A DNA stretch of 64,000 nt from Candidatus Altiarchaeota archaeon (GTDB lineage: Archaea > Altiarchaeota > Altiarchaeia > IMC4 > SCGC-AAA252-I15). Made by a program: the position numbers and the translations under genes. Of the stretch, positions 2,948-57,145 are shown one piece after another. The stretch is from contig JBFYKH010000071.1 in NCBI GenBank assembly GCA_041306075.1, forward strand, positions 1,499 through 65,498, read 5' to 3'. The notes beneath the pieces were generated by a model. The model saw only the letters and a list, made by a program, of their open reading frames with translations. It did not search any database and was not told the DNA's origin. The number at the start of each line of letters is the position of its first letter. The first letter of the stretch is position 1.

Positions 2948-2969
2948 GGCTTAGATAAAAATAACCCGC

Positions 2970-3704: not shown

Positions 3705-3715
3705 ATTATAAATAC
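3705..3715 (+). promoter_or_regulatory. TATA box (tattataaata) 16-26 nt upstream of the ATG at 3731
   Basis: AT-rich hexamer run in an otherwise GC-rich divergent intergenic region. The spacing fits a leaderless archaeal transcript. Confidence 0.35.
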
Positions 3716-3730
3716 CCTTTTCGCAGGCAT

Positions 3731-4558
3731 ATGGCAAAAAAGAACGGGAAGCAGGCTAGGTTCGGGATAAGGCTGCCGAAGCAGTGGATGAAGTACCTGA
3801 TAGTCATCACCGGGGTGGTCATGCTATTCTCCGGCCTCTACACAGGCATAGAGCGCGACGAGCCGCAGGCCGCCGGGGCCGACGTCCGCGCGAAATGGAA
3901 CGTCGTCCAGTATGACTCCGCCAGCCTCGGGCAGGGGAGCGCCCTGGTGAAGATAATCGGCCCCACCGGGCAGTACAAGCTGAAGCCGAGCGCGATGTCG
4001 AGGATGAGCGAACAGGACATCGCGGACGTGTTCGAGAGCAACGTCACCGGCGTCAGGAGCATAGTCCTGGAGAGCGCCCCCACCGAGGCGTTCTTCCACA
4101 TTGAGACCGACGGCAGCGACGTGTCCTCCGAGGTGGCCCGGAGGATTAGGATGCCCGGCGGATACCAGACATACGGCGTCTACCTGGGCGCGACGCCGTA
4201 CGGCAACCTAAACGTCGTGGGCGAGGGCCTCGCGGAGGGCGACTGGGTCAGGGTAATACTCCTTGAGCGCATGAGGGATGGCGCATCCGACACGCTCGGC
4301 TTCGTGGAGAGGAAGATACCCTCCGGGGAGGCATATGACGCCGTCGTGACCGGTTTCGACTCCGAGGATAATTCGACTACCGCGTACGTCCGTCTCCCGG
4401 AAGAGCTGGTCCTCGCCGGCTCGCCTGTCCAGCTGCCCGAGGGAGGCGTCGTCGCGGCCTCCCTGCCGTCGGGCGCAAAGGTCAACGACACGGTACGCGT
4501 GAAAGTGTCTTCAATAACCCTGTCTAACATGACTGCGTACTTCGCTACCGCGACTTGA
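3731..4558 (+). CDS. Hypothetical membrane-anchored protein (N-terminal TM helix, extracytoplasmic domain)
   Basis: The ORF track begins at 3680. The start was moved to the ATG at 3731 (MAKKNGKQ...), which is followed by one hydrophobic helix (YLIVITGVVMLFSGLY). No recognisable family. Confidence 0.5.
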   Translation: MAKKNGKQARFGIRLPKQWMKYLIVITGVVMLFSGLYTGIERDEPQAAGADVRAKWNVVQYDSASLGQGSALVKIIGPTGQYKLKPSAMSRMSEQDIADVFESNVTGVRSIVLESAPTEAFFHIETDGSDVSSEVARRIRMPGGYQTYGVYLGATPYGNLNVVGEGLAEGDWVRVILLERMRDGASDTLGFVERKIPSGEAYDAVVTGFDSEDNSTTAYVRLPEELVLAGSPVQLPEGGVVAASLPSGAKVNDTVRVKVSSITLSNMTAYFATAT

Positions 4559-5090
4559 GCCACTGGCAGAGGAGTTCCGTCGCCTTCCCCCTGTGGCTGA
4601 CCTCGTGCTTGCGCTTCACGTCCTCTGCGAACGTCTTCTTCCCGTCCGCCGGCTGGAATATCGGGTCGTAGCCGAAGCCGCCCCTGCCGCGCATCTCGTA
4701 CGTTATGTAGCCGTCCACCACGCCCTCGAACAGCATCTCCTCCTCGCCCTTGTACGCTATCGCGGAGACGAACTTCGCCCTCCTGTCCTGCATGCCCTCC
4801 ATAAGCCTCAGTATGCCCTCGCAGCCTATCTTCCCGTAGGCGAAGGCGCTGTAGGCGCCGGGGAAGCCGTTCAGGGCGTCGATGAAGAGGCCGGAGTCCT
4901 CCACTATTATCGGCCTCTTAATCTGTGAGTGGACGTGCCTCGCCCCCTCCTCGGCGACGGTCCTCACGGAGTCGGCGCGGACCTCCGGGTACATGACGTT
5001 AATCTGAGAGAACGATACCATGTGCAGCTGGCCTATCTTGTTGGCCTCGGCGACCTTGTGCCGGTTGCTCGTCGCGAACAATATCTCCAT
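4545..5090 (-). CDS. Non-canonical purine NTP pyrophosphatase (Ham1/RdgB/ITPase family)
   Basis: 181 aa. Carries the signatures ILFATSNRHK, EDSGL, GFPGAYSA and GFGYDPIF. Confidence 0.85.
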   Translation of the reverse strand: MEILFATSNRHKVAEANKIGQLHMVSFSQINVMYPEVRADSVRTVAEEGARHVHSQIKRPIIVEDSGLFIDALNGFPGAYSAFAYGKIGCEGILRLMEGMQDRRAKFVSAIAYKGEEEMLFEGVVDGYITYEMRGRGGFGYDPIFQPADGKKTFAEDVKRKHEVSHRGKATELLCQWLKSR

Positions 5091-5126
5091 GTATGGATTT
5101 AATTCCGTGCGCTTATAAAGTATCCC

Positions 5127-6218
5127 ATGCGCGCGAACGCCATCTTCTTCCTGAGCACGGCGTCCACCGGGATGAGCGTCCTGTTCATACCCGTCATAGC
5201 AAAGGAGCTCGGCGCGAGCAACCTGGTGGTCGGGCTCATCGTCTCGATATACGGGCTCATGTCCCTCGTCTCCATGTACCTCTTCGGATGGGTCAGCGAC
5301 AACCGGGGCCGGCTCGCGCTCATCAAGGCGGGCATGCTCCTGTCGACGTTCACGTTCATGCTGCAGGTCTTCTCCCAGAGCCAGGAGTCGCTCCTTCTTA
5401 TCCGCGCACTCTGCGGGTTCAGCATAGGCGTGTTCTACAGCTCGCTCGTCATATACGGCCTCGAGTCAGGCAAGAAGCTAGGGAAGTTCACGTCCTACGA
5501 GAGCCTCGGCTGGGGGCTCGGCAACCTCGCGGCCGGCGCGATAGCGGCGTACGCGGACGTCTTCATACTCTCCGCAATAATGTTCCTCGTCAGCTTCGCC
5601 TTGGCGTTGAAGCTCCCGAACGTGAAATCGCACCACGTCCGGGTGCCTCTGATACCTCTTGGGATAATCAGGCGGAACCTCAACGTCTACGTCCCATTCC
5701 TCCTGCGGGACATCGGCGCGTTCAGCATATGGGCCTTCTTCCCCCTCTACCTCTACGACCTCGGCGCCTCCAGCCTCTGGATAGGGATAATATACTTCTT
5801 CAACACCGGCGGGCAATTCCTATTCAAGCAGCACATCGACCGCTACGGCAGCGAGCGGCTGTTCACGTGGGGTCTGGCATTGTCCGCAGCCGCATTCTAC
5901 GCCTACGGCCTCCCGACGTACTACCTGCACGTCCTCCTGATGCAGCTCATGGTAGCGGCAGCCTGGAGCGCTCTCAGCGTCGGGGCCATGGGCCTCCTGA
6001 CCGAGCGGAACCCGGAGAAGGCAGCGGTCATCGGCCTCTTCTCGAGCGCCAGGAGCTTCGCGCAGATTATCGGCCCGCTCATAGCCGGGGCCGTAACCCA
6101 TGTGTGGGGGTTCGGCGCGCTGATGATATTCGCGGGGACGATAACTCTAGCAGGCCTCCTCATGCACATGGCGCTGCGCACGAGCGCTAAGAACGCGCGA
6201 AGCCAAGCGGCTGTCTGA
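5127..6218 (+). CDS. Major facilitator superfamily transporter
   Basis: 363 aa with about 12 predicted TM helices and an MFS-like loop (GWVSDNRGR) between TM2 and TM3. Confidence 0.8.
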   Translation: MRANAIFFLSTASTGMSVLFIPVIAKELGASNLVVGLIVSIYGLMSLVSMYLFGWVSDNRGRLALIKAGMLLSTFTFMLQVFSQSQESLLLIRALCGFSIGVFYSSLVIYGLESGKKLGKFTSYESLGWGLGNLAAGAIAAYADVFILSAIMFLVSFALALKLPNVKSHHVRVPLIPLGIIRRNLNVYVPFLLRDIGAFSIWAFFPLYLYDLGASSLWIGIIYFFNTGGQFLFKQHIDRYGSERLFTWGLALSAAAFYAYGLPTYYLHVLLMQLMVAAAWSALSVGAMGLLTERNPEKAAVIGLFSSARSFAQIIGPLIAGAVTHVWGFGALMIFAGTITLAGLLMHMALRTSAKNARSQAAV

Positions 6219-6263
6219 CCTGTCCCCTGGGGGGTAGATGTCAGTCCCGGGCTAACCGACGGC

Positions 6264-6803
6264 TCAGGTCTCCGGTAGCGTGTCCGTTGTTGTCGTTACG
6301 GTGCTGCTGGAGCTGTCCGGAAAACAAGCGCACGCGGCATGCTCAAGGTCCACCAAGACGAAGCGACAACTTGGCTTGTCCACTGGGCAGGCGCCCTCGC
6401 ACTGCGCAGTCGGCTCACCCCATTGGTTGAGTGTCGGGGAGCATGGCTTTGTGCAGTAGCAGCTTAAGCCATAACTCACGCAAACCTGGCTAGGGTCGCT
6501 GCAGTAGCCGTCGCATTGTGGGGCAAGTAGCATGCCGCACGGGTTTTTGCATGCGCATCCACCGGTGTTCTGCCACTGGTCTTGGAATGTGCAGAATTGG
6601 CCCTGTGGGCAGCTCCAAACGCACTGTTGGTCAAGAGGGTTACCGCATTGGGGTATAGTGAATGAGCTTGGCGGTATGGTGTACGTCGGGGTGGTGTATG
6701 TCGCATCGACGTTCCCGTTGGCGTAGGCTAGAGCCACCAAAATCGCAACGGCGATTGGAAAAAACAAGGCTCCCGCACAGTCCTGCCTGTTAGTCGAGTC
6801 CAT
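6264..6803 (-). CDS. Cysteine-rich secreted/membrane-anchored protein, unknown function
   Basis: 179 aa. Signal peptide with a cleavage-like AYA|NG site. About 28 Cys in about 150 aa, in CxxC/CxC-like patterns, and a Thr-rich C-terminus. Confidence 0.55.
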   Translation of the reverse strand: MDSTNRQDCAGALFFPIAVAILVALAYANGNVDATYTTPTYTIPPSSFTIPQCGNPLDQQCVWSCPQGQFCTFQDQWQNTGGCACKNPCGMLLAPQCDGYCSDPSQVCVSYGLSCYCTKPCSPTLNQWGEPTAQCEGACPVDKPSCRFVLVDLEHAACACFPDSSSSTVTTTTDTLPET

Positions 6804-6845
6804 GTTATCTAATGCTTAGCCGCCTTATATAATCCAACGGAGTCG

Positions 6846-7331
6846 CTATTTCTGTCCTGTCCTGAACTCCATCAGTTCCGGGACCGGCTCGCGGCTAGCG
6901 GAGATTATCGCGAGTATGCCCGCCCTGTCGTCCAAGGCCGGCGTCCTGTCGAAGAGGCAGCTTTCGGCGATGGCTCTGTCCCCCGCTTCCCTGTAGCGCT
7001 TTGTTGTGGAGATGACGGCCTGCGGGAGAATCTTTGGCAAATCGGCAGCCTTAATCGGCACCGCGTCCACGAGCCTCCTGCATTCCGGGGAATCGCCCGC
7101 CTTAGCGCGGGCCGTTACCAGCGACCTGACGACTCCTCTGGCGATGGCAACGTCAATGTCCTCGGGGCCAATGCTTTGGTACCCCCTCATGTCGGGGTCG
7201 GACCTCAGCGCCGCCTTCGTCGCCTCGATGTGGGCTACGTTATATGCTATACAGGCATCCAAAGGAGTCATCTGCCTGGACGTTTCAGCGCCGGATTGCG
7301 TCGGCCCCCCCCGGGCGACCCTCTCTTTCAC
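6846..7331 (-). CDS. Hypothetical protein
   Basis: 161-aa ORF with protein-like composition and no recognisable motifs. The start is uncertain. Confidence 0.4.
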   Translation of the reverse strand: MKERVARGGPTQSGAETSRQMTPLDACIAYNVAHIEATKAALRSDPDMRGYQSIGPEDIDVAIARGVVRSLVTARAKAGDSPECRRLVDAVPIKAADLPKILPQAVISTTKRYREAGDRAIAESCLFDRTPALDDRAGILAIISASREPVPELMEFRTGQK

Positions 7332-7619
7332 GATACTACTACGGGCAGGATAATCTTAAAAACCCTGAGGTGTTTTGAACAATGTCCACTATCTTTCTCC
7401 TGCGAATCTCCGAAGCGGAGGAACATCCGCCCCCACGGGCGCATCCACAAAAAGCTGCCGCCACAGGAAATGCATCAAATCCAGAAGGCAGCCGTCCCCG
7501 GCCGCCCTCGCCGAATCAACGGCCCCCACATCGCCGGGACATCCTCCGGCGGAACCGCCCCGCCCTCACCGAGAGACCGTCATGTCGTTTACTGACCGGG
7601 GTTTCAGCGGATAAAAGCG

Positions 7620-8564
7620 CTACTTGAGACTGAAGCACCGCTTGAATATCCTCTCGCAGTCCTCGGGGCGGGTGGCGTTGAAGGGCTCGTACTCCTCCGG
7701 GGTCCCGGAGCCCTTGTCGTTGGCGGCGGTCACCACCTGGAGGCCGAATCCCTCCCTTATCTCCTCCATCAGGTTCAGCTGAGGCTTCAGGTACTGCTCC
7801 GGGTCGATGATGAACAGCACGACGTCGGCCAGGTACCTGAGGGCGAGGACGGCCTGCAGTTCCACGTGGTTGCGCTCGCCCATCGGGCGGTCGAGTATCC
7901 CCGGGGAGTCGATTATCTGGTATTCCATGTACCTGTGGACCCTGTAGCCGACGAGTATCTCCGTGGTCGTGAACGGGTAGGGCGCTACCTTCACGTTGGA
8001 GCCGGTGAGCGCCTTGACGAACGTGCTCTTCCCGGCGTTCGGGATTCCCGCGACGACGAGCGTCGGCACGTCCCTCAGGAGCGGGAACGACGATATCAGC
8101 ACCTTCGCCTCCTGCAGGAAACTAAGTTCCGGCCTGATGCGCTTCACGAAGGAGCTCGCCCTCCCGAGGAATGCGCGGCTCTCCTCCGTGTCCTTCTGCG
8201 TCTTCAGCTTCCTGAGCGTCTTGTTCCTGAGGAACGAAATCCTCTCGCTGCACCATTTCACGGTGGCGAGGCTCTTCTTGTACCTGTCGCGGTTCACCCG
8301 AAGGTCAAGGAGGCTCCGGTGGAACTCGCTCATCTCCTCGTACCGGGGGAAGTACTTGACGACGGCGTTGAGGTCCCCCTCAAGGACTGCGGCCGCGGTC
8401 TCTACCCGCCGTATCTCGCCGGTCAGGAGCTTCTCCGGCTTCTTCGGGCCCATCGCCCTCGCCTTCCTCCCGTCCTTGGAGCCCGCCTTGAAGGCGTTGT
8501 CTATGAGGTCGTCGGCCGAAGGCACGTGAGGGAGCCGCCACATGCTTATATCTAGCCCGTACAT
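7620..8564 (-). CDS. Nog1/NOG-family GTP-binding protein
   Basis: 314 aa. G1 motif GIPNAGKST, G3 DSPG, and the NOG1 N-terminal helical region. Confidence 0.8.
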   Translation of the reverse strand: MYGLDISMWRLPHVPSADDLIDNAFKAGSKDGRKARAMGPKKPEKLLTGEIRRVETAAAVLEGDLNAVVKYFPRYEEMSEFHRSLLDLRVNRDRYKKSLATVKWCSERISFLRNKTLRKLKTQKDTEESRAFLGRASSFVKRIRPELSFLQEAKVLISSFPLLRDVPTLVVAGIPNAGKSTFVKALTGSNVKVAPYPFTTTEILVGYRVHRYMEYQIIDSPGILDRPMGERNHVELQAVLALRYLADVVLFIIDPEQYLKPQLNLMEEIREGFGLQVVTAANDKGSGTPEEYEPFNATRPEDCERIFKRCFSLK

Positions 8565-8585
8565 GAATTATAACGGTGATTTTTT

Positions 8586-8942
8586 ATGTCTAGGTCTACT
8601 GTGAAGGTCAAGCATCTCGGGATATGGTCTACTGCGAAGTTCGCGTCTGTCTTCTGCTTCGTCTTCAGCATCCTCTTCCTCCTCGTGTGGGGGGCCGTGT
8701 TCGCCGCGATGATGCTGTTCTCGATGATACTAGGCATCGGCTTGGGCGGCAGCGACGCCCTCCTCGGCACCATCCTCGGCGCAGGCGTGGGCCTGGCAAG
8801 CTTCGTATTCGGGGCGGTCGTGTTCGTGATAATATACACGATAGTCGGCTTCGTCATGGGCGCCATCGCGTCCATAGCGTTCAACGTCGTGGTTAAGCTG
8901 TCCGGCGGCCTCTCGTTCGACGCGGAACTCGAATCCAAGTGA
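8586..8942 (+). CDS. Small integral membrane protein (3-4 TM helices)
   Basis: 118 aa, highly hydrophobic (FASVFCFVFSILFLLVWGAVF...). Confidence 0.5.
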   Translation: MSRSTVKVKHLGIWSTAKFASVFCFVFSILFLLVWGAVFAAMMLFSMILGIGLGGSDALLGTILGAGVGLASFVFGAVVFVIIYTIVGFVMGAIASIAFNVVVKLSGGLSFDAELESK

Positions 8943-10021
8943 TGGCGAACATAGCGTTCATAGGCGACTGCCACCTCGGCTTCCGGCACAGGGGGAAGGC
9001 GCAGAGGCTCAGGGACTACGCGGCCGCTTTCGAGGACGCGGTGTCGAAGGCGCTCTCCATGGGCCCGGACGCCGTGGTATTCCTCGGGGACCTGGTGCAC
9101 CACGCCAAGCCAGACCCCGTGAGCCTCCGGACCGTCATCAGGAGGCTGATGGGGGCCGCCGACCGCTGTCCGGTAATCGTGTGCATAGGCAACCACGAGA
9201 TAGAGGGGCACTTAGGCACCACGTACGCGCCGATATACGGCGACCTCCACCCGGCGATACACGTTTTGTCCGCCGAGAACCCGGAGGCCGCCGTCGACAT
9301 AGGCGGCAGGAGCTACCGCTTCCGCGGCTTCGAGTACACCCGCCAGAGGGAGTCGGCGCAGGAGAAGCTGAAGGCCGTCGCCGAGCGGCCGGGAGGCGAC
9401 GTGAACATACTATGCCTCCACCAGGCGGTCGAGAGGTACCTGAGCCCCTACGAGCTGTCGCTCCCCTCACTGCGGCGGGCGGCGGAGAAGCACGACCTCG
9501 TCATGTCCGGGCACGTCCACAAGCACCAGGAGATAACGGAGGTCTCGGACATAGCACCCGCGTACTACTGCGGCTCCACCGAGCGCGTCAGCTTCAACGA
9601 GGCCGGGAACCCGACAGGGTTCATGTTCTTCAGGGGCGACGACTTCAGGGAGCCCGAGTACGTGCCCGTTGACTCCGCCCCCATGTCGTACAGGCGCCTT
9701 GAGTTCGAGGGGGCCCCGGAGGAGCTCAACGCCCTCATACTCAGGACCGTCGAATCCGACGGCGCGAAGCTCCTGAGGATTGACGTGTCAGCCGACATAC
9801 GCGGCGACGCCATGGACGTCAGAAGGGACTGGGACGCATGCATGGGCGACAGGACGGTGCTCGAGGTGAACGTCGCCCCCAAGACGTCCGATTCCGAAGT
9901 CAGGCTCGAGCGCGCCCAGCTTAGCGAAGACCTCATCAGGGAATACTTCCAGAAGGCGGCCACCGGCGACAGGGAGCTGGAGGAACTGTGTGTCGAACTA
10001 TTCCGAAAGTACGGCTCGTGA
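8939..10021 (+). CDS. mre11: Mre11/SbcD-like DNA repair nuclease (calcineurin-like phosphoesterase)
   Basis: Phosphoesterase motifs I-V are present (GDCHLG, GDLVHH, GNHE, LHQ, GHVHKHQ). No rad50 is adjacent. Confidence 0.72.
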   Translation: MMANIAFIGDCHLGFRHRGKAQRLRDYAAAFEDAVSKALSMGPDAVVFLGDLVHHAKPDPVSLRTVIRRLMGAADRCPVIVCIGNHEIEGHLGTTYAPIYGDLHPAIHVLSAENPEAAVDIGGRSYRFRGFEYTRQRESAQEKLKAVAERPGGDVNILCLHQAVERYLSPYELSLPSLRRAAEKHDLVMSGHVHKHQEITEVSDIAPAYYCGSTERVSFNEAGNPTGFMFFRGDDFREPEYVPVDSAPMSYRRLEFEGAPEELNALILRTVESDGAKLLRIDVSADIRGDAMDVRRDWDACMGDRTVLEVNVAPKTSDSEVRLERAQLSEDLIREYFQKAATGDRELEELCVELFRKYGS

Positions 10022-13439: not shown

Positions 13440-16247
13440 TCACGGCTGAAACTCTTGGAGAATCCTTTCGGCGTCCTTGCCGTTCCCGCCGCCCATCGCC
13501 AGCGCAGGCTTCCCGCCGCCCCCGCCGCCGAGCGCCGCACACAACCGCTTACAAACGTCGCCTGCATCCATGCCGCCGCTTGAGGCGACGACGACGTTGA
13601 CCCTGTCGCCTCCTATGTTGAGCAGTACCAGTAACCTCCCGGGCTTAGAAACGGCCTTCAAGGCCGCATCGCTCAACGCCTTCACCGGCAGGCCATGGGT
13701 CACATGCTTTACTGTGTCTGATGATGCGAACCTTTCACCAATATCCTTAAGGAGCATGTCCTGTGAGCCTGCCTGGAGCCTCTCCAACGCCTTCCTGTTC
13801 TGCCTCCAGGCGTCGAACAGGGAGTTTGCAGACTCGACTAAGCCGCCGCCTGGTTTGTAGGCCGCTGGCGCGCCCCCGAGGGACTTTATTGTAATGGCGT
13901 CCTGGTCGCACTCCAGCATAAACCGCTCGGCGGTCTGCGGCAGCTGCTCCGGCTGGACGCGGAAAACCTGAGCCGCCTCGGCGACTGCGCCGCCCTTGAA
14001 TGGGGCCGCGACCTTCATCTTGGCCGACGTCGCAGAGTACATTTCCTCCTCCTTCCCCTCGTCCTTCTCGGATGCGGCGCCTGCCGTGAACTCGAGCCTG
14101 ACGACGCCGTCCTGTATTCTCTTCGCGGACAGCATCCTTATCCTGCCCGCCTCCCTGGTGTTCCCGAGGTGGGTTCCGCCGCAGGCTTCCGTGTCGATGC
14201 CCGGGATGCTGACTATCCTGATACTTGTGCCCGGGACCGCGCCGCCCTGGTACAATCTCATCCCGTACTTCCCCTCGGCCTCGTTCCGCTTCATCCACTT
14301 GACTTCGACGGGGCGGGCCTCCGCGACCGTCACGTTGGCCGTGTCCTCTATCCGCTTCAGCTCCTCCTGCGACACGCTCTTATAGTGGGTGATGTCGAGC
14401 CTGGACGACTCCTCGCTCTTGTGGGCGCCCGCCTGCCATACGTGGGGGCCGAGCGTCTCCCTCGCCGCCGCGTTCACGATGTGGGTGGCGGTGTGGTGCT
14501 GCATCAGCTGGAACCTTCGTTTGTCGTCGAGCATGCACTCGACCGTCTGCCCGGGCTTAAGGTGCGCGATTTTATCTACCGTGTGGACGACGACCCTCCC
14601 CGCCTTCTCCACATAGGTGACCTTGGAGCCGCCGATTCTGCCGTAGTCCGACTCCTGGCCCCCTCCCTCCGGGTAGAAATAAGTTCTGTCCAGTATGACC
14701 CTGCCGTCGGACGCGTAAAGGACTTTCGCCTCGAAGTCGAGCCTCCCCTGGTCCTCGTAGTAGGCGAGTACCGTGTCCGCAATCCCCTCCGGGGGGCTGA
14801 ACCCGGCCTTGGCCTCATCCTCTTGCGCCGCCTTCTCATGTCGCTCCTCCACGAGGCGGTAGAAGTTGTCGGGCACCGGGGCACCGGTGAGTTTCCCGAC
14901 GAGGTCAGGCGATATGCCGTGGCTGTCGTAGAGCTCCACCATCTTCTCCACCGTCATCGACTTCTCCTTCGCGAGGAGCCTCCTGCCCTTCTCCTGGCCT
15001 TCGACGTAACGCTGCCTCTCCACGGCCACGATGTCGTAGAGGCTGCCGGTCTCCTTCAAGTCCGTGTACCACCTCCCGAACTCCCCTATGTGCTCCTCGA
15101 ACACCTTCTCCAGCTCTATGTTGAGGCCGAACTCCTCGTTCAGGCTCCAGCACCTCCTCAGGAGCGTCCTCAGGTTGTATCCGCCGCCGACGTTGGAGGG
15201 GAGCGCCCCGTCGTGTATCGCGACGAGCAGGCTCCGGGCGTGGTCCGCTATCGCGTAGAGCGCCCGCATCCTGAACACCCTCTCCCTGAGCTCGGGGGGC
15301 GTGAGACCCAGCTCCTTCGCTATGGAGCCCCACACCGACCCTATGTCGTCGACGTCGTCGATGTTGAGGAGGCCCGCGTAGTGGCCGAACTTCGCCATGA
15401 ACTTCCGGTCTGGCTTGACGCCGCTCGCCCGGTACATGTATTCCATCACCTTCGGGAACGTGCTGTCGTAGCTCATCGGGCTGCCCTGGCTGAACCAGCT
15501 CCAGCGCTCCAGGCCCGCGCCCATGTCGATGACCCGGGTACGAAGCTCCCGGGAGCTCCCGTCCGGAAGCACCTGGTACTGCATGTACACCTGGTTGCCG
15601 AGCTCGAGGCCGCGGCTGAAGAACTCCATGCTCGGGCCGTAGTTGCCGCCGCCGGCCCACACGTCCTCGTGGTAGCATATGTCGCCGGCCTTGATTCCGA
15701 GGCCGGTTGTGAGGAACTCGTGCATCTGGAGTATGCCCTCGTCCTTGAAGTAGACGTGCCGTTCCGGCGTGTTGAAGGTGTGCTGGCCGACCATGACGAA
15801 CCCGCTGTAGTGGCGGCCGGTGACGCCGACGGAGTCGATGTCCTGGAACCTGAGGCAGAACTGCGGCTCAAGGACCGCGGGCGCGGGCGGCTCCACCTCC
15901 CCTGCGACGACGTAAGGCTGGAAGTCGTTGATGCCCGCGTTCACGAAGTACAGGTCCTCGTACCAGCGGCAGACGACCGGGTACCTGTTGATGGGCACGT
16001 AGCCCCATTTGCCGAAGACCTTCACGTACTCGTCCCAAGCCTCCTTGTACTCGAACCTCTTCCTCGTCAGCTTCTCCCCGATGAACCTGTAGCCTCCCGA
16101 GCACGCCGGCTCGTCGCAGAACTCCCGCTCCACGGAGCTCCAGAATCCGCGGCCGCATTTGCCGCAGACGCGCCGGCTGAACCCGACGCCCTCCAGGGAC
16201 TCGGCCGGATAGTACTTCCGGAAGTTCCTGTGGAACTCCGGCTTCAT
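13440..16247 (-). CDS. alaS: Alanine--tRNA ligase (archaeal type)
   Basis: Class-II AlaRS N-terminal catalytic core, editing-domain HxxxH/CxxxH motifs and the C-terminal DHHA1-like region. The start was trimmed from the ORF-track 16439 to the Met at 16247 (MKPEFHRNF...). Confidence 0.93.
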   Translation of the reverse strand: MKPEFHRNFRKYYPAESLEGVGFSRRVCGKCGRGFWSSVEREFCDEPACSGGYRFIGEKLTRKRFEYKEAWDEYVKVFGKWGYVPINRYPVVCRWYEDLYFVNAGINDFQPYVVAGEVEPPAPAVLEPQFCLRFQDIDSVGVTGRHYSGFVMVGQHTFNTPERHVYFKDEGILQMHEFLTTGLGIKAGDICYHEDVWAGGGNYGPSMEFFSRGLELGNQVYMQYQVLPDGSSRELRTRVIDMGAGLERWSWFSQGSPMSYDSTFPKVMEYMYRASGVKPDRKFMAKFGHYAGLLNIDDVDDIGSVWGSIAKELGLTPPELRERVFRMRALYAIADHARSLLVAIHDGALPSNVGGGYNLRTLLRRCWSLNEEFGLNIELEKVFEEHIGEFGRWYTDLKETGSLYDIVAVERQRYVEGQEKGRRLLAKEKSMTVEKMVELYDSHGISPDLVGKLTGAPVPDNFYRLVEERHEKAAQEDEAKAGFSPPEGIADTVLAYYEDQGRLDFEAKVLYASDGRVILDRTYFYPEGGGQESDYGRIGGSKVTYVEKAGRVVVHTVDKIAHLKPGQTVECMLDDKRRFQLMQHHTATHIVNAAARETLGPHVWQAGAHKSEESSRLDITHYKSVSQEELKRIEDTANVTVAEARPVEVKWMKRNEAEGKYGMRLYQGGAVPGTSIRIVSIPGIDTEACGGTHLGNTREAGRIRMLSAKRIQDGVVRLEFTAGAASEKDEGKEEEMYSATSAKMKVAAPFKGGAVAEAAQVFRVQPEQLPQTAERFMLECDQDAITIKSLGGAPAAYKPGGGLVESANSLFDAWRQNRKALERLQAGSQDMLLKDIGERFASSDTVKHVTHGLPVKALSDAALKAVSKPGRLLVLLNIGGDRVNVVVASSGGMDAGDVCKRLCAALGGGGGGKPALAMGGGNGKDAERILQEFQP

Positions 16248-16310
16248 CTGCGCCTTCAGGGCGCGGAAATCAAAGGCCACCGTAAATATACGCTCCCGCC
16301 TCTTAAAACG

Positions 16311-16320
16311 CTTATAATCC
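16311..16320 (+). promoter_or_regulatory. TATA box (cttataatcc) 23-32 nt upstream of the ATG at 16343
   Basis: Divergent promoter region shared with alaS. A second element (cgtaaatata, 16283-16292) faces alaS. Confidence 0.35.
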
Positions 16321-16342
16321 TGCGCCGCCGGATACTTTACCG

Positions 16343-17059
16343 ATGAGCCTGCGCGAATTGAAGCCCCCGCCTCTCCTTGAGCCGCCGCTTCCGGCGTCTG
16401 AATTCGGCTGGACCACGGTCCCGGAGGGTAGTATAGCATCCTTCGCGGAAATGGTGTTGCGCGGGGGGCTCGACTGCGCCAACCTGGGCGAATGCCACGT
16501 CGCCCTGGCGGGATTGGGCCGCCGCCTGGAGGTTCCGGAAAGCCAGTGGGGGACTATGGCGGAGGCGCTCGCCAAGCATCGGAAGGACGGCAACGCCCTC
16601 CTCACCGCATCCCTCCTCTTTTCCATGAATGCTTTAGGCCGGCCCCAGGAGATAACCCAAGATGATACGCGGCTCTTGTGCGCGGATTTGGACCGCTACC
16701 GCGCAAACAAGACGGGCCTGAGGGTAGCGGAGCTCCACTACCGCATGCACGGCATCGGAGTCGGCGTGGAGATTACGCCCGCCGACAGAAAGACAATGGT
16801 CGACGCGGTAGGCCAATACCGACTAAACGGCGACGGCCTCGGTGTGGCCGCCCAGCACTACTACCTCATGAAGCTCGGCTTCAAACAGGAAATCAAAATG
16901 CAGGACTGGGCCCTGATGCGCAAGCGCCTCGAAGAGGAGTCCAGGTTCGTTTCCGCGCCTGGATTGGAGCTTGCGTGCATGGTGTCGGAGCTTGCCAGGG
17001 AGGCCGGCGAAACCCGCCCAGCAAACGATATGCCGCCCCTGAAGAGGTTCACGCGATGA
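16343..17059 (+). CDS. Repeat protein of unknown function (3-4 copies of a ~40-aa G-[WL]-x-V-x-x-LHY-x-[LM]-x-x-[LI]-G-[IF]...E-I-T...DG unit; C-terminal MPPLKRFTR)
   Basis: 238 aa. Internal repeats are visible directly in the translation. Its stop overlaps the start of a paralogous gene (ATGA). Confidence 0.6.
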   Translation: MSLRELKPPPLLEPPLPASEFGWTTVPEGSIASFAEMVLRGGLDCANLGECHVALAGLGRRLEVPESQWGTMAEALAKHRKDGNALLTASLLFSMNALGRPQEITQDDTRLLCADLDRYRANKTGLRVAELHYRMHGIGVGVEITPADRKTMVDAVGQYRLNGDGLGVAAQHYYLMKLGFKQEIKMQDWALMRKRLEEESRFVSAPGLELACMVSELAREAGETRPANDMPPLKRFTR

Positions 17060-17796
17060 CGGTCAGAATCGCGCAGCTCAAGGAGCAGCCTCTCCTGTCT
17101 CCGCCCGCGGATAGGCCGGACCTGGCGGTCCCGCGGGACGTGGAGGACGCCATCCTCAAGGGGATAGCGGACTACCGGGGGGCGAAGGACGGATGGAACG
17201 TCATCAGGCTCCACTACTATGCCCTCCGTCTTGGCATACCGACCGTGGTCACCACGGCGGACGAGGAGCTGGCGCGGAAGGAGCATCACGAGGTCAGGTA
17301 CGGAGGAGGGAAGCCGTGGACCACCCACGCCGTAGGCGACTTCTACCTACAGATGAAGGCCATCGGCAGGAAAGCCCCCGTATTCACCACCGACGAGGAG
17401 AGAATGAGGAACACGTTCGACGATGACAGGAAACGCGACGGATACGGCCTCGCGCAGACGCTCTACCAGTTCCATGCGCTAGGCCTCAAGGAGGAGGCCA
17501 CTGACGCCGACCGGGAGAAGATGCTGTCCGCGCTCGAGGATGCGCGGCTTAACCTCCGCGGCTGGGGCGTCCTGAGGATGCACTACTGGCTGAGGGGGCT
17601 TGGCATCAGGGAGGAGATTACCGTGGATGACAAGGCCCTCTTCGAAGGGCGCATAAGGGAGGTCAGGGGCAAGGATAGCGTCCTCATGCTTGCCGAGGCC
17701 TACTGCCTGCGGCATGAGCTACTGTCGGACAAGGGCGCGAAGAATCCAGCCGAGACGTCGATGCCGCCCCTGAAGCGTTTCACTCGCTTTTCCTGA
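17056..17796 (+). CDS. Repeat protein of unknown function, paralog of 16343-17059 (4-5 repeat units, the same C-terminal MPPLKRFTR motif)
   Basis: The ORF-track entry 16678-17796 carries an Arg-rich artefactual N-terminus. The real start is the ATG at 17056 (MTVRIAQLKEQPLLSPP), which parallels the N-terminus of the upstream gene (LKPPPLLEPP). Confidence 0.6.
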   Translation: MTVRIAQLKEQPLLSPPADRPDLAVPRDVEDAILKGIADYRGAKDGWNVIRLHYYALRLGIPTVVTTADEELARKEHHEVRYGGGKPWTTHAVGDFYLQMKAIGRKAPVFTTDEERMRNTFDDDRKRDGYGLAQTLYQFHALGLKEEATDADREKMLSALEDARLNLRGWGVLRMHYWLRGLGIREEITVDDKALFEGRIREVRGKDSVLMLAEAYCLRHELLSDKGAKNPAETSMPPLKRFTRFS

Positions 17797-18775
17797 CGAC
17801 TATCTCCCAGTCGTGCTCGGAGAGCTGCCTCCTGTGTATTATCTTGTGGCCGTCGGTCTCCAGGCCGCGGGGTATGTCCTTGAGCGCCTCCCTGGTGTTG
17901 ACGACCACCCTCAGGACCTGCTCTATGCGGAGGCCGTCGATGGCCTCCTTCACCTTCAGGAAGTCGACGGGGGTGCCGTATTCCCTGAGGTCCAGTTCCC
18001 GGTCGACGGTGTAGTCCTCGTAGTATTCGCCCTTGATGTACGCCTTCGTCCTCTCGTGCTTAGGGTTGTGGAAGAGCTCCTTGGCGGGGCCGTGCTCGAT
18101 GAGGCTGCCAAGGTACAGGTATATGACGTGGTCTGCGAGCCTCTTGGCCTGGTGTATGTTGTGGGTGCTCATGATTATCGTGTAGTCGCGGCCGAGCCTC
18201 ATAATCTGGTCCTCTATCTTCCTCGACGACACGGGGTCGAGCGCGCTCGTCGCCTCGTCGCACAAGAGCACCTTCGGCTTGACGGCGAGGAGCCTCGCCA
18301 GGCTGAGCCGCTGCTGCTGGCCTATCGACAGCCTCGCCGCCGGCTCCCCGAGCCTGTTCTTGAGCTCGTCCCACAGCGCCGCGTTTACCAGGCTCTCTTT
18401 GACTAACCCGTCCAGGACGGCCTTGTCGCCCTCGCCGTGTATCCTCGGGCCGTATGCGACGTTGTCGTATATGGACATCGGCAGCGGGGAGGGCTTCTGC
18501 GTTATCATCCCCACCTTCGTCCTCAGCTCGGTCACGTCCACGGAGTCCTCGAGTATGTTCTCCCCCTCAAACATTATCCGCCCCCTCGCCTTCAGGCCCT
18601 CGTTGAAGTCTATGAACCTGTTGAAGCAGCGAAGGAAAATCGTCTTGCCCGAGCCGGAGGGCCCTATTACGCACACAATCTTCCGCTCAGGTATCTCGAG
18701 GCTGATGTCCTTCAGGAGCACCCCCTCCCTCGCGCTGACGGAGAGGCCTTCGACCCGTATTATCTCGCCGGTCAT
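17780..18775 (-). CDS. pstB: Phosphate ABC transporter ATP-binding protein PstB with a C-terminal TusA-like (Cys-less) domain
   Basis: Residues 1-255 are a typical PstB (Walker A GPSGSGKT, signature LSIGQQQRL, Walker B LLCDEATSALD). Residues 256-331 follow the TusA fold pattern (LDLREYGTPVDF...LRVVVNTREALKDIPRGLETDGHKII...WEIVVRK), with Thr in place of the catalytic Cys. Confidence 0.85.
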   Translation of the reverse strand: MTGEIIRVEGLSVSAREGVLLKDISLEIPERKIVCVIGPSGSGKTIFLRCFNRFIDFNEGLKARGRIMFEGENILEDSVDVTELRTKVGMITQKPSPLPMSIYDNVAYGPRIHGEGDKAVLDGLVKESLVNAALWDELKNRLGEPAARLSIGQQQRLSLARLLAVKPKVLLCDEATSALDPVSSRKIEDQIMRLGRDYTIIMSTHNIHQAKRLADHVIYLYLGSLIEHGPAKELFHNPKHERTKAYIKGEYYEDYTVDRELDLREYGTPVDFLKVKEAIDGLRIEQVLRVVVNTREALKDIPRGLETDGHKIIHRRQLSEHDWEIVVRKSE

Positions 18776-29412: not shown

Positions 29413-31467
29413 TTGTGTTTGATTTGGTTCGTTTTCGGGGCGAGCATCATAGCCCTCCTGTACGCGGCCTACCTCGCCAGGTACGTCTTCAGCTTCGGAC
29501 GCGGCGATAAGCGCATGCGCGAGATCGCAGACGCCATAAGCGAGGGCGCCAGCGCCTTCGTGAAACGCCAGTACGCGACGATAACCGTGCTCACCCTGAT
29601 AATAGGCGCCCTGATATTCGCGGCATACTTCCTCATTGGCGAGTCCGTAAGCGGCCTTAAGACGGCCGGCGCATTCGTCTTCGGGGCGTTCTGCTCGGGC
29701 CTAGCAGGCGTCGTCGGCATGTGGGTGTCGGTGCGCGCCAACGTCAGGGTCGCGCAGGCGTCCAAGCACGGCCTGGACGAGGCCATGAAGGTCGCATTCC
29801 GGAGCGGCGCCGTCTCCGGGATAATCATAGTCGCGCTCTCGCTCCTTGGCGTCAGCATACTCTACGCTCTGTACTCGATGGGCTCCGAGGCCACGGAAGT
29901 CCCGTTCATGATAGTCGGCTTCGGATTCGGCGCCTCCTTCGTCGCCCTGTTCGCCCAGCTCGGCGGAGGCATATACACGAAGGGAGCGGACGTCGGAGCG
30001 GACCTCGTCGGAAAGGTCGAAGTCGACATACCCGAGGACGACCCCAGGAACCCCGCCGTCATCGCAGACCTCGTGGGAGACAACGTCGGCGACTGCGCGG
30101 GCCGCGGAGCCGACCTCTTCGAGTCCACCGCGGCCGAGAACATCGGCGCCATGATACTCGGCGTCGCCCTGTATCCGGTGTTCGGCGTCGCGGGCATACT
30201 GTTCCCGCTCGTCGCAAGGGCCGGAGGCCTCCTGGCGAGCCTGGTCGGAATCATGTCCGTGAGAGACGCGGGGGACGGCGACCCCATGTCCGCCCTCAAC
30301 AGGGGATACTACATCTCCGCCATACTCTCGGCGGCGTTCCTCGCCGCGGCCACATACTACATGCTCGGCCCCCACTGGCTCCTGTTCTTCATGTGCGGCA
30401 TAGTCGGGATAATCACGTCCGTCCTGATAATCTGGATAACCATCTACTACACAGAATCCCGGTACAATCCCGTGAAGTCGATAGCCGAGGCCTCGCTCAC
30501 GGGCAGCGCGACCAACATCATGGTGGGGTTCGCGATAGCCCTCGAGACGACGGGGATGCCGATAGTCGTGCTGTGCGGTGCCCTCATGGCGTCATACACG
30601 CTCGGGGACTGGTCCGGGATAGCCCACGGGGGCCTCTACGGCACCGCAATCGCCACCATGGGCATGCTGAGCACATGCGCCTACGTCCTGGCCATGGACA
30701 CGTTCGGCCCCATAACCGACAACGCGGGCGGCATCAACCAGATGAGCGGCCAGGCCGAGAAGTACAGGAAAATCACGGACAAGCTCGACGCGGTCGGGAA
30801 CACTACGAAGGCCCTGACTAAAGGCTACGCAATCGGCTCAGCGGCGCTCGCAGCATTCCTCCTCTTCAGCGCATACCTCGACGAGGTCACCAAGTACTCC
30901 GGCTCAGTCCCGGTCATAGACATGGCGAAGGTGCCCGTATTCGTGGGTGCCATGCTCGGGGGGATGATAGTCTTCGTCTTCTCCTCGTTCGCCATCCGGG
31001 CGGTCGGGCAGACGGCGTTCGAGGTCGTGAACGAGGTCAGGAGGCAGTTCAGGGAGATTAAGGGGCTGATGTCCGGGGACGCTAAGCCCGACTATGCTAC
31101 TTGCGTCGACATCTGCACGCGCACCGCCCTGAAGGAGATGGTGCTCCCCGGCGTCTTCGTCGTCGCCGTCACAATCGCAGTCGGTATCCTACTTAAGGCT
31201 GAGGCCACGGGGGCGTTCCTCATGTCTAGCACGATAAGCGGCATACTCATGGCGCTAGTCCTCAACACCGGCGGCGGCGCGTGGGACAACGCCAAGAAGT
31301 ACATAGAGGACGGGGCCCACGGCGGCAAGGGCAGCGAAGCCCACAAGGCCGCGGTCATCGGCGACACCATCGGCGACCCCTTCAAGGACACGGCGGGCCC
31401 GAGCCTCCACGTCCTGATAAAGCTCCTGTCCACCCTCACCCTGATACTGGTGCCCCTGTTCGTCTGA
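29413..31467 (+). CDS. hppA: Membrane-bound proton-translocating pyrophosphatase, K+-independent-type signature
   Basis: 684 aa, with M-PPase motifs as in the first copy. It carries GNTTKALTKG, the Lys/Thr pair diagnostic of K+-independent H+-PPases. TTG start. Confidence 0.93.
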   Translation: MCLIWFVFGASIIALLYAAYLARYVFSFGRGDKRMREIADAISEGASAFVKRQYATITVLTLIIGALIFAAYFLIGESVSGLKTAGAFVFGAFCSGLAGVVGMWVSVRANVRVAQASKHGLDEAMKVAFRSGAVSGIIIVALSLLGVSILYALYSMGSEATEVPFMIVGFGFGASFVALFAQLGGGIYTKGADVGADLVGKVEVDIPEDDPRNPAVIADLVGDNVGDCAGRGADLFESTAAENIGAMILGVALYPVFGVAGILFPLVARAGGLLASLVGIMSVRDAGDGDPMSALNRGYYISAILSAAFLAAATYYMLGPHWLLFFMCGIVGIITSVLIIWITIYYTESRYNPVKSIAEASLTGSATNIMVGFAIALETTGMPIVVLCGALMASYTLGDWSGIAHGGLYGTAIATMGMLSTCAYVLAMDTFGPITDNAGGINQMSGQAEKYRKITDKLDAVGNTTKALTKGYAIGSAALAAFLLFSAYLDEVTKYSGSVPVIDMAKVPVFVGAMLGGMIVFVFSSFAIRAVGQTAFEVVNEVRRQFREIKGLMSGDAKPDYATCVDICTRTALKEMVLPGVFVVAVTIAVGILLKAEATGAFLMSSTISGILMALVLNTGGGAWDNAKKYIEDGAHGGKGSEAHKAAVIGDTIGDPFKDTAGPSLHVLIKLLSTLTLILVPLFV

Positions 31468-56188: not shown

Positions 56189-57145
56189 CTATTTAATGTC
56201 CGGGAGCCCCGCGTCAAGCTGTATGGCCTCCAGCCTCCTCTTTATCTCAAGGGACCTTGCGACCGCCCATCCGTCGCCCGTCCTCTCGGCTTCCCTGAGG
56301 GTTGCCGCGACGGCTTCAAAGTCCCTCTTCTCGGGGGCCTCCCCTATGCCGATTTCGTTCATCCATACGATGAGGCCTCCAGCCTCGATGCCCATCGTGT
56401 TCTTACCCCTGACTTTCCTGAGGGCTTTGCGGATGAGGCCCTCGTCCCGTTTGGGGTCGGTCTCCTCTCCTACACTTCTCATCATGCCGTGGAGCATGGC
56501 CACCCTGGCACCGTTCTTCTCCACACTCCGCTCGTGCTCCAGGAGGTCTGCGAACATCATCCTCTCAAGAGCGGTCGGCTCGGTTGGGACGCCCAGGTCC
56601 CTCGCGTAAGCGTGCATGGCCAGGGTGTTCACGACGCTCACCGAGCGCATGACGTTCAGCCCATCAGCCGTTTCCTCGACTGCCAATGCATCCACCCTGA
56701 AGGTTCCGTCCTGCTCCGGCCATGTCGCGGTGAGCCGGTGGCCGTCTCTTCTGAGCGTCGCCTCCCTCCCTCTCTTCACTGTCCTGACGGTCCACTCCCC
56801 CGGTCTTGTCTCCTCGACGCTGCCGACCTTGTCCTGCAAATCCGCTTCCCTCGGGGTCCTCCTAAGTATGAATCCCAGCTTCTTCAAGCCTTCATCGACT
56901 TCGTCCAGCCGCATGCCCTCCCCGAGCGTGAACATGCGCTTGGGCCTGTAGTATTCGAGGTCTTTGAGGATTATGGCGGAGTCCTCTGCGGGGTCGACTT
57001 TCCCCCCCATCCCCCTCCTCATGGAGTGCATCTGGAGGGCTTCGAAGCCCGCGCCGTCCCCCCGGTACGCCTGGAGGGCCCTTGCCATGAGTTCCACCCT
57101 CCTGTCTGCCTCTTCCCCCCCCGTCCGGCTTCTCTGGGCTGGCAT
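56189..57145 (-). CDS. Hypothetical protein
   Basis: 318-aa minus-strand ORF between glyA and folD. Its composition is more protein-like than the overlapping plus-strand ORFs. No family recognised. Confidence 0.4.
   Translation of the reverse strand: MPAQRSRTGGEEADRRVELMARALQAYRGDGAGFEALQMHSMRRGMGGKVDPAEDSAIILKDLEYYRPKRMFTLGEGMRLDEVDEGLKKLGFILRRTPREADLQDKVGSVEETRPGEWTVRTVKRGREATLRRDGHRLTATWPEQDGTFRVDALAVEETADGLNVMRSVSVVNTLAMHAYARDLGVPTEPTALERMMFADLLEHERSVEKNGARVAMLHGMMRSVGEETDPKRDEGLIRKALRKVRGKNTMGIEAGGLIVWMNEIGIGEAPEKRDFEAVAATLREAERTGDGWAVARSLEIKRRLEAIQLDAGLPDIK

Follow-up and report, generated by a model that had tools for sequence, protein, structure and literature searches.

An archaeal family of 40-residue helical-hairpin repeat proteins with conserved peptides at both ends

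What kind of protein is encoded by two adjacent genes lying between alaS and the pst operon of an Altiarchaeota contig, and why do both proteins carry nearly the same short basic peptide at their ends? We considered this question across a window of 64,000 nucleotides, the whole stretch of DNA that was analysed (Table 1). Both genes belong to a repeat family that is itself new, although its fold class is known, and the short peptides at the two ends of its members are almost invariant.

Table 1. Positions of the gene pair, its motifs and the other family sequences in the window.
Feature	Position	Strand	Description and basis
Gene 1	16343..17059	+	238 aa; five alpha-hairpin repeats of 40 aa between the N-terminal motif and a flexible linker; C-terminus MPPLKRFTR, then stop
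Gene 2	17056..17796	+	246 aa; architecture as gene 1; C-terminus MPPLKRFTRFS then stop; identical to P0001
ATGA stop/start overlap of genes 1 and 2	17056..17059	+	read from sequence
Divergent intergenic region, alaS/gene 1	16248..16342	.	A/T-rich TATA-like boxes, read by eye
TATA-like box TAAATATA	16283-16290		conserved in L001/L002; read by eye
TATA-like box CTTATAAT	16311-16318		25-32 nt before gene 1 ATG; read by eye
N-terminal motif of gene 1, P-P-L-L-E-P-P	16367..16387	+	residues 9-15; motif scan, family logo
N-terminal motif of gene 2, Q-P-L-L-S-P-P	17086..17106	+	residues 11-17; motif scan, family logo
Five-repeat body of gene 1	16415..17011	+	residues about 25-223; AF2 helices H28-39 through H205-223; repeat-HMM matches
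Five-repeat body of gene 2	17125..17733	+	residues 24-226; AF2 helices H27-42 through H209-223; profile-profile matches
C-terminal motif of gene 1, M-P-P-L-K-R-F	17030..17050	+	motif scan, synonymous codon variation in family
C-terminal motif of gene 2, M-P-P-L-K-R-F	17761..17781	+	motif scan, synonymous codon variation in family
Third, divergent family copy	56189..57145	-	318 aa, identical to P0131; family HMM E 4.5e-27, two domains
C-terminal relic or mini-ORF	7389..7565	-	last repeat and tail only (AVDSARAAGDGCLLDLMHFLWRQLF...VPPLRRFAGER then stop)

The gene pair and its coding status

The arrangement of the pair agreed with the preliminary description, which had proposed two coupled genes of about 240 amino acids, divergent from alaS and next to pst. 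The divergent alaS is of the archaeal type (TIGR03683, E 5e-250), and pstB is convergent with the pair, the tails overlapping by 17 nt. Translational coupling is implied by the ATGA overlap, and a GAGG is found about 10 nt upstream of the gene 2 start, within the K-R codons of gene 1; we take the genes to be a co-transcribed, translationally coupled pair. Upstream of gene 1, two TATA-like boxes lie in the intergenic region, and the transcript leader of this gene is probably short or absent.

Gene 1 and gene 2 are real coding genes and real members of a family. The pair is syntenic in the locus of a relative (L001), where the gene 2 ortholog is 76% identical with a dN/dS of 0.17, and the motif codons show synonymous variation within the family. 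The slot occupied by gene 1 turns over between close relatives, with 30% identity compared with 76-94% for its neighbours. The two proteins match each other over their full length (33% identity, BLASTP E 3e-24) and, judged from this level of divergence, are old paralogs in a multi-copy family. They had been described as a duplicated protein. The paralogy stands, but "duplicated" is misleading because the genes are old members of a family with many copies, of which a third copy and a relic are also present in the window.

Repeat body and predicted fold

The several copies of an approximately 40-residue repeat reported earlier proved to be five units in each protein, as detected with a repeat HMM from whose building the window sequences were left out. 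The unit has the family logo E-[VIL]-T-x-x-D-x3-[MIL]-x3-L-x3-R-x2-G-D-G-x2-[LVI]-A-x-[ML]-[HL]-[YF]-x-[ML]-x2-L-G. Three repeats of gene 1 were strong (i-E 4e-9 to 9e-16) and four of gene 2 were clear (i-E 2e-5 to 2e-18); among 400 shuffled controls, 12 gave a single match and no control gave two or more. When profiles of the five repeat positions were built across the family and compared in hhalign, every pair matched with a probability of at least 98.7%.

The suggestion that this repeat is not a catalogued one was borne out. Pfam returned zero families for gene 1 and gene 2 at E<=10, neither Pfam nor NCBIfam matched the two proteins or 77 relatives, and no TPR, Sel1, HEAT, ARM, ankyrin or pentapeptide model was among the 25 Pfam families listed for the relatives (E<=1). 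Searches of the PDB with the family profile and with a single-repeat profile gave matches at noise level only, and a literature search with the family motif strings returned nothing relevant.

AF2 models were obtained with high confidence for both gene 1 (pLDDT 90.2, pTM 0.83, 10-11 helices) and gene 2 (pLDDT 89.4, pTM 0.82, 10 helices). In these models the five alpha-hairpin repeats are predicted to curve like an alpha/alpha toroid. One alternative is that the proteins bind small molecules or act as enzymes, like other members of the alpha/alpha-toroid class (transcobalamin alpha-domain, terpenoid cyclases, prenyltransferase beta subunits), with a ligand in its central cavity and the termini incidental. 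We consider this quite improbable. Known alpha/alpha-toroids (transcobalamin/haptocorrin alpha-domain, C3d, terpenoid cyclases, prenyltransferase beta) have six units of about 45-50 residues, whereas the new family has five of 40 and lacks detectable sequence similarity to them as well as a catalytic Asp, zinc, DxDD or QW motif; proline-rich terminal peptides and tandem multi-copy arrays also set the new family apart from them. Foldseek gave no significant match in the PDB (best E 0.02, best TM 0.48) or in BFVD, and no prenyltransferase or squalene-cyclase repeat was among the Pfam families listed for the 77 members. Column conservation across the family revealed no catalytic or metal-ligand motif outside the repeat consensus, including Asp-rich and Cys/His metal sites, and arrays of eleven copies 25% identical are rare among enzymes.

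The repeats could also be read as degenerate EF-hands of a calmodulin-like calcium sensor, as the family profile matches calmodulins (E 0.002-0.05 over about 130 residues) through the shared pattern ...DG...EL....LG..pT..E.... However, Arg fills the site corresponding to the first calcium ligand in 87% of repeats, and the loops between helix A and helix B are mostly 2-4 residues in both models, compared with 12 in an EF loop. Since a designed helical repeat protein scores about equally, we interpret the calmodulin match as reflecting helix caps and amphipathicity. An EF-hand identity is effectively refuted by the loop length, the ligand residues and the predicted fold, and we give it almost no credence.

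In having tandem two-helix repeats, the family resembles TPR, Sel1, PPR/OPR and HEAT proteins and designed binders, and by E-value Foldseek ranked highest a designed repeat protein in complex with a (PLP)6 peptide, together with helical-repeat proteins of the mitoribosome. Compared with such open helical-hairpin repeats, however, global TM-scores were only 0.2-0.34, and the 40-residue period and the consensus are distinct. The hairpin repeat is new, its five-hairpin toroid-like fold is confidently predicted, and the family is named in no library.

Conserved peptides at both ends

The N-termini of the two proteins, LKPPPLLEPP in gene 1 and LKEQPLLSPP in gene 2, are similar, as had been pointed out. 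Their family logo is [RK]-x-[QP]-P-L-L-x-P-P, in which the three residues of the P-L-L core are each found in 104-106 of 106 sequences (4.2-4.3 bits), within a longer basic and proline-rich pattern, K-[LI]-K-x-L-[RK]-x-[QP]-P-L-L-x-P-P. At the other end, both proteins had been said to finish in an identical MPPLKRFTR; this 9-mer is present in both and is the exact end of gene 1, but FS follows it in gene 2. The tag extends beyond the pair. Within the window, a motif scan found it in the relic tail VPPLRRFAGER, and the form P-P-[LI]-[KR]-[KR]-[FLIY] occurs 0-4 residues from the C-terminus in 119 of 152 family representatives, the peptide as a whole following the pattern [MLI]-P-P-L-[KR]-[KR]-F.

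Both motifs occur together in 104 of the 152 representatives. The only invariant columns in a 77-sequence alignment are P12, L13 and P237, and the columns of highest information across the family are P-L-L, P17 and P-P-L-K. By column conservation, the N-terminal motif is as invariant as the C-terminal tag, and the preliminary description under-weighted it. Because the motif codons vary synonymously across the family, conservation is at the protein level. An origin of this conservation in the ribosome-binding site of the downstream gene was rejected, given these synonymous codons and the retention of the motif in last-in-array and stand-alone copies, for which there is no coupled gene downstream. 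Since the tag is common across the family and among its best-conserved columns, its sequence argues for a functional signal. The earlier suggestion of a dedicated C-terminal signal is thereby supported in part. The tag may serve in targeting, in binding a partner or as a structural latch; no partner was identified, and the gene context is not conserved. A related subfamily has a different but analogous motif at its extreme C-terminus, [LIM]-P-[DE]-Q-[KR]-x-F-COOH.

The tether before the C-terminal tag is rich in P, E, Q, K and T and variable in sequence, although its length is 10-13 residues in 84 of 93 sequences. This tight constraint on length suggests that the tag must reach a fixed site. 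In the AF2 models, the terminal blocks have a pLDDT of about 56-74, compared with values below 50 in residues 231-235 of the gene 2 tether, and such intermediate values in the termini would be consistent with docked peptides.

These features could be explained by purely structural caps or a latch. PLLxPP with its following Trp and the tethered PPLKRF would cover the hydrophobic ends that repeats 1 and 5 leave exposed, closing or sealing a five-hairpin partial toroid, with no role in binding other molecules. Capping motifs are common in repeat proteins, and here the predicted curvature is that of six-hairpin toroids, yet there are only five hairpins, so that a seam or gap must be covered. The N-terminal motif lies 11-14 residues from the first helix cap, with a Trp between them that 77% of sequences share; a tether of fixed length would suit a contact within the same molecule, and intermediate pLDDT of the termini in monomer models also favours caps. 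However, caps are normally conserved no better than the repeat core, while here the peptides are the best-conserved columns and identity falls to 20-30% in the surfaces beneath them. A hydrophobic cap does not need the conserved [KR] at three N-terminal and two C-terminal positions, and members without both motifs still score as repeat proteins. We regard caps as a serious explanation but, on balance, an unlikely one.

Family extent, arrays and candidate roles

An exhaustive profile search of 1.84 billion representatives gave 165 matches at E<=1e-3, of which 111 also passed E<=1e-10. Most are full-length, with 235-255 residues, and none of the 165 clusters is named. A word-indexed search using the family alignment recovered 5 proteins only. 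Against the HMM of alignment A3, gene 1 scored E 5e-62 and gene 2 E 3.5e-70, values that are inflated because both proteins are rows of A3; independent support for membership comes from BLASTP, in which each gene matches other members over its full length, and from the repeat HMM built without window sequences. The family is unannotated and mostly archaeal, and its main form is so far found in archaeal gene contexts, in uncultured archaea.

Members occur as translationally coupled tandem arrays of divergent paralogs, with 2, 3-5, 9-10 or 10-11 copies. Overlaps of 4 nt like that of gene 1 and gene 2 recur in the arrays of L001, L005, L008 and L054, and together with the arrays they imply co-expression. 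Family bodies are only 20-30% identical. In one array, nine full-length paralogs that we compared share 20-51% identity (median 28%), compared with 56% in their first 18 residues. Gene neighbourhoods differ, with alaS and pst in the window, SMC in L005 and a class I aminoacyl-tRNA synthetase (tRNA-synt_1b) in L007; in L008 the array stands alone.

The repeat module can exist without the terminal motifs, because both are missing from the third copy in the window and from long HEAT fusions. The third copy, located between glyA and folD and without a Pfam match, has an insertion of about 100 residues between repeats and ends in GLPDIK. The only domain fusions seen were with HEAT repeats, in two long proteins, and with an unassigned Cys-rich N-terminal region. 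The relic matches family HMM positions 197-239 (17.6 bits) and sits in a 288-bp spacer downstream of a Nog1-type GTPase gene. Synteny with a Cys-rich secreted protein was considered, as one is found beside the relic and another beside a copy in L005, and was rejected because the two are not homologous.

A single C-terminal tag on many paralogs per genome recalls the substrates of dedicated sorting systems, and the termini may be sorting or processing signals for such a machine: unconventional export, delivery to a protein compartment (like encapsulin cargo peptides), protease recognition, or ubiquitin-like C-terminal processing at the ...RF-GG of some lineages. The position of the tag near the C-terminus fits this explanation, as do the residues after it. 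Family-wide, positions +6 and +7 are most often G, and each full-length copy of the L054 array ends in Phe or Tyr followed by GG and 2-3 residues (RFGGGG, KFGGSR, RYGGEQ). However, most members lack GG, as do genes 1 and 2 (tails FTR and FTRFS), and the gene neighbourhoods do not consistently include a gene resembling a sortase, encapsulin or protease. No signal peptide, membrane anchor or hydrophobic helix was found; no 19-residue window is hydrophobic (family median maximum Kyte-Doolittle score 0.87), and the proteins are predicted to be soluble, with neither signal peptide nor membrane segment.

The viral, plasmid and phage collections that we searched also contain no member of the family. 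Of the 37 loci returned by two motif-pattern scans of IMG/VR, none encodes a family member, tblastn against plasmid and phage collections gave no match, and among 77 members PADLOC gave no match and PHROGs noise-level matches only. A metagenome scan with K-L-x-E-Q-P-L-L-x-P-P found 6 chance loci and no family members. Sorting or processing signals appear improbable to us.

An invariant short terminal element on a diversified body, present in many copies in arrays, is shared with F-box/LRR and F-box/kelch adaptors and with C-terminal-sorting substrates (PGF-CTERM, PEP-CTERM, encapsulin cargo). Compared with these, we found no homology, F-box-like domain, membrane helix, encapsulin-type GSL motif or associated machinery gene; unlike PGF-CTERM and PEP-CTERM proteins, the family has no signal peptide or C-terminal transmembrane helix, and its termini are basic and proline-rich. 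ARM-repeat proteins of the importin-alpha type are scaffolds with an auto-inhibitory terminal basic peptide that resembles the ligands they bind. The sequence PPLKRF is similar to a monopartite basic motif, and we take importin-alpha to be a precedent, as a functional analogy only, for docking in cis or trans in a repeat groove. There is no sequence or fold match to importin-alpha, whose ARM units have three helices and 42 residues, and archaea are not known to have a nuclear-transport context.

Our tentative preference, held at a little under an even chance, is that these proteins are soluble scaffolds with diversified repeat surfaces and invariant end peptides that dock on a common site. The repeat body would serve as the scaffold, its surface free to diversify around fixed buried and turn positions (the T-x-x-D helix cap, L, R, the G-D-G turn, A, H/Y and L-G), and the two end peptides may act as common docking handles. 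Docking could occur on the repeat body of a co-expressed paralog, which would produce head-to-tail hetero-oligomers, or on one shared cellular partner. In this picture, the divergent copies in the array of a genome would offer different binding surfaces, all connected through one shared interface. Several points were counted against docking: no partner was identified, gene neighbourhoods differ, the third window copy and the HEAT fusions lack both motifs, and the role of the end peptides may be no more than to cap a five-hairpin solenoid at its open ends.

A more far-reaching version, to which we assign only a small chance, is that the end peptides serve as address labels in an archaeal system of assembly or targeting that has not been described. 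An array, with up to 11 divergent toroid-like modules, would then be a repertoire of diversified binding surfaces, chained head-to-tail via peptide-in-groove contacts or plugged into one hub in the manner of F-box-type adaptors, possibly to recognise targets that are foreign or variable. Diversifying pressure on such a repertoire would fit the turnover seen in the gene 1 slot.

When terminal peptides stay constant on a scaffold that otherwise diverges freely, they usually point to a common interaction, and the binding site or partner of these peptides could bring to light an archaeal system of assembly or recognition not yet described. Should they prove to be only caps, the family would still offer a compact natural case of a partial toroid built from repeats, of use in classifying folds and in designing repeat proteins.

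Gene pair between alaS and the pst operon

Gene 1 and gene 2 aligned end to end with 33% identity (E 3e-24), and the stop codon of gene 1 overlaps the start codon of gene 2 as ATGA at 17056-17059. The preliminary description had proposed coupled tandem paralogs lying divergent from alaS and next to the pst operon, and both the coupling and the position were borne out. Each protein opens with a basic segment that leads into P-L-L-x-P-P, and each carries M-P-P-L-K-R-F-T-R at the C-terminus. This tail had been described as the common ending, which is true of gene 1, where the stop follows directly; gene 2 has two extra residues (FS) before its stop. A/T-rich TATA-like boxes are found in the intergenic region by gene 1, and we infer a short or absent leader for this gene.

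The two frames are genes and not antisense artefacts, as had been argued. The order alaS, gene 1, gene 2, pstBAC, with the same 4-nt overlap, is found at L001, a related locus on another contig (the order also at L002 and L003), and gene 2 shares 76% amino-acid identity with its L001 counterpart (dN/dS 0.17). The neighboring AlaRS (88% identity, dN/dS 0.152) and PstB (94%, 0.092) were compared between the same two loci. The gene 1 slot is occupied by a family member at L001 too, with 30% amino-acid identity and saturated dS (2.0). Since neither occupant is the other's best family match, the comparison points either to replacement by another paralog at this slot or to divergence far faster than that of its surroundings.

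Long antisense open reading frames (ORFs) around the pair are the usual by-product of 63% G+C. One of them, opposite alaS, was rejected as a gene and is a typical high-G+C shadow ORF. Separately, the PstB model covers only residues 6-250 of the window PstB, and the record of the L001 ortholog lists a TusA-like domain (PF01206) at the C-terminus; PstB is thus fused to TusA, an unusual combination that the L001 relative shares.

Coordinates of family members and neighboring features in the window and on related contigs
Feature	Location	Strand	Description
H+-pyrophosphatase	240-2255	-	Full-length, membrane; H_PPase (Pfam) E 1e-265
H+-pyrophosphatase	29413-31467	+	Full-length, membrane; H_PPase (Pfam) E 3e-255
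Cys-rich protein	6264-6803	-	Small, N-terminal hydrophobic segment; by the fragment
Fragment	7389-7565	-	Short ORF in spacer after Nog1-type GTPase gene
Shadow ORF	14169-16346	+	725 aa, antisense to alaS; reaches 3 nt beyond gene 1 start codon
alaS			5' of gene 1, divergent; archaeal-type alanyl-tRNA synthetase, TIGR03683, E 5e-250
Gene 1	16343-17059	+	238 aa
Gene 2	17056-17796	+	246 aa, ATG at 17056
pstB	17780-18775	-	331 aa, ATPase; 3' of gene 2, convergent, 17-nt tail overlap
Third family member	56189-57145	-	318 aa, between glyA and folD (opposite strand)
L001, gene 1 slot	7291-8004		Family member; two copies in alaS/pst context, as in the window
L005, Cys-rich protein	1059-1823	+	Small, N-terminal hydrophobic segment; by a family copy
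L008 array	1-7963		10-11 copies; 8-kb contig otherwise empty
L053 pair	38-3803		268 and 266 aa, coupled, directly after 717-aa VWA-domain gene
L054 array	1-9332		9-10 copies

An unnamed family of five-hairpin repeat proteins

An internal repeat of about 40 residues had been noticed in both proteins, and it proved real. A 40-column repeat HMM, built from relatives only with the window sequences excluded, recovered five units in each protein, three of them individually significant in gene 1 and four in gene 2; shuffled controls gave a single match in 12 of 400 and more than one match in 0 of 400. Compared as profiles, all five repeat positions are homologous to one another (hhalign probability 98.7-99.3%). 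Their consensus is E-[VIL]-T-x-x-D-x3-[MIL]-x3-L-x3-R-x2-G-D-G-x2-[LVI]-A-x-[ML]-[HL]-[YF]-x-[ML]-x2-L-G, with the Arg as its best-kept residue (87%).

Word-indexed searches found almost no relatives. When a four-sequence profile was searched exhaustively with HMMER, 165 cluster representatives matched at E≤1e-3, of which 111 also passed E≤1e-10; almost all are 230-260 aa long and align over their full length. Members are unnamed in their sources or labelled 'hypothetical protein', and none of the 77 aligned members had a match above noise in Pfam, NCBIfam, PADLOC or PHROGs, in line with the earlier remark that the repeat was not recognizable as TPR, HEAT, ankyrin, Sel1 or pentapeptide. By sequence and by motif, the PLLxPP/PPLKRF family fits none of the named families tried, and no member was found among IMG/VR motif-match loci, plasmids or phages.

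For the main family, the neighborhoods retrieved are archaeal: the window has MCM, LonB and a Nog1-type GTPase, and a MAG labelled 'uncultured archaeon' has SMC, ScpA/B and TruD. The window also holds two H+-pyrophosphatase genes less than 30 kb apart. In two long proteins the repeat module stands behind HEAT repeats; the neighborhood retrieved for one of them (L006) encodes a BipA-type GTPase, a sulfatase and a hybrid histidine kinase, and these genes look bacterial. The C-terminal motif differs in a subfamily that adjoins a VWA-domain gene (L053). Its repeats are W/F-rich, and across the subfamily the extreme C-terminus is a conserved [LIM]-P-[DE]-Q-[KR]-x-F, although the second L053 copy has Lys in place of the acidic residue.

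Structure models of gene 2 (77-sequence alignment, pLDDT 89.4, pTM 0.82, 10 helices) and gene 1 (93-sequence alignment, pLDDT 90.2, pTM 0.83, 10-11 helices) each contain five hairpins, built from a helix of ~16 residues, a turn of mostly 2-4, a helix of ~13 and a linker of ~8. The predicted fold class is a curved ring of hairpin repeats, open or closed, that has one hairpin fewer than the classical six and to which no solved structure is closely related. Foldseek returned nothing significant (best E 0.02, a designed helical-repeat protein in complex with a (PLP)6 peptide, TM 0.25; best TM 0.48, transcobalamin), and viral structure models gave no match. The predicted fold resembles alpha/alpha toroids. 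A ligand-binding or enzymatic toroid is unlikely. An EF-hand sensor is also unlikely: the weak calmodulin profile match (E 0.002) is explained by a helix-cap and amphipathic pattern, and calcium-loop features are absent.

Tandem arrays and further copies

Family members sit in translationally coupled tandem arrays. L005 has at least five copies, three or four of them consecutive, and L007 and L009, from the same MAG, have further copies. At L008 one copy is split into 130-aa and 87-aa pieces; the nine full-length copies compared share 20-51% mutual identity (median 28%), and 56% over the first 18 residues. These paralogs are old and have been maintained; they did not arise by recent amplification. 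The L054 contig, too, is made up almost wholly of coupled family paralogs. An AAA_14/DUF4143 ATPase gene breaks up its array, an IS630-like HTH gene follows the array, and every full-length copy has a C-terminal Phe/Tyr followed by GG plus 2-3 residues.

The third family member in the window is identical to P0131; it has a ~100-aa insertion between repeats and lacks both terminal motifs, an architecture shared by P0148. The fragment matches only the last repeat and ...VPPLRRF. Either it is what is left of a lost copy, now a pseudogene, or it is a mini-ORF, possibly for a stand-alone tail peptide. The Cys-rich proteins of the window and L005 have no detectable homology (BLASTP E 0.13).

Terminal peptides and their candidate roles

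The N-terminal motif was present in 112 of 152 representatives. Aligned on the motif, the logo reads M-(T)-(V)-K-[LI]-K-x-[LFV]-[RK]-[EGP]-[QP]-P-L-L-x-P-P; the motif starts at residue 8-11, and its P, L and L occur in 104-106 of 106 sequences. The C-terminal P-x-[MLI]-P-P-[LI]-[KR]-[KR]-[FLIY], followed by only 0-4 residues, was present in 119 of 152. In the 77-sequence alignment, only P12, L13 and P237 are invariant, and the columns highest in information content are P-L-L, P17, P-P-L-K, the Gly of each L-G turn and one Arg. Motif positions use all four Pro codons, five Leu, both Lys and four Arg codons, so selection acts at the protein level. We rejected the motif as a ribosome-binding site for the downstream gene because it is kept in stand-alone and last-in-array genes.

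A spacer of 11-14 residues, in which 77% of sequences keep a Trp, separates the N-terminal motif from the first repeat. The tether leading from the last repeat to the C-terminal motif is P/E/Q/K/T-rich and variable in sequence, with a length of 10-13 residues in 84 of 93 sequences. In the models, the terminal blocks have intermediate pLDDT (~56-74), and tether residues 231-235 of gene 2 fall below 50. Family proteins have no hydrophobic segment, and their median pI is ~6.8.

A family protein is a soluble scaffold with fixed structural positions and a drifting surface, bearing two near-invariant Pro-rich basic peptides at its extreme ends, one on a length-constrained tether, and presumably expressed in coupling with several divergent paralogs. 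In the simplest reading, which we hold tentatively, both peptides would serve as handles that dock on a single conserved site. This site may lie on the repeat body of neighboring subunits, supplied by co-expressed paralogs, where a conserved ladder of Arg, Asp, His and Tyr could form the groove that takes up a basic, Pro-rich peptide; hetero-oligomers would result. Alternatively, the site may lie on a shared partner encoded elsewhere in the genome. The main rival, in which the peptides do no more than cap or latch the ring of five hairpins at its open ends, is somewhat less likely: fixed tether length and intermediate pLDDT fit it as well as they fit handles, but extreme conservation and the conserved basic residues suit handles better. 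Sorting or processing signals would account for one tag common to many paralogs and for the Phe/Tyr-GG endings at L054, but neither a signal peptide nor a membrane anchor nor a machinery gene supports them, and we consider them improbable. Of the earlier suggestion that the tail is a dedicated targeting or partner-binding signal, partner binding survives as the tentative handle reading, with caps as its rival, and targeting is held to be improbable.

In its proposed logic, the family resembles repeat scaffolds with terminal auto-ligand peptides, or adaptor repertoires that combine a handle with variable repeats. What is new is the helical-repeat family, unusual in its invariant termini and in the way its genes are arrayed.
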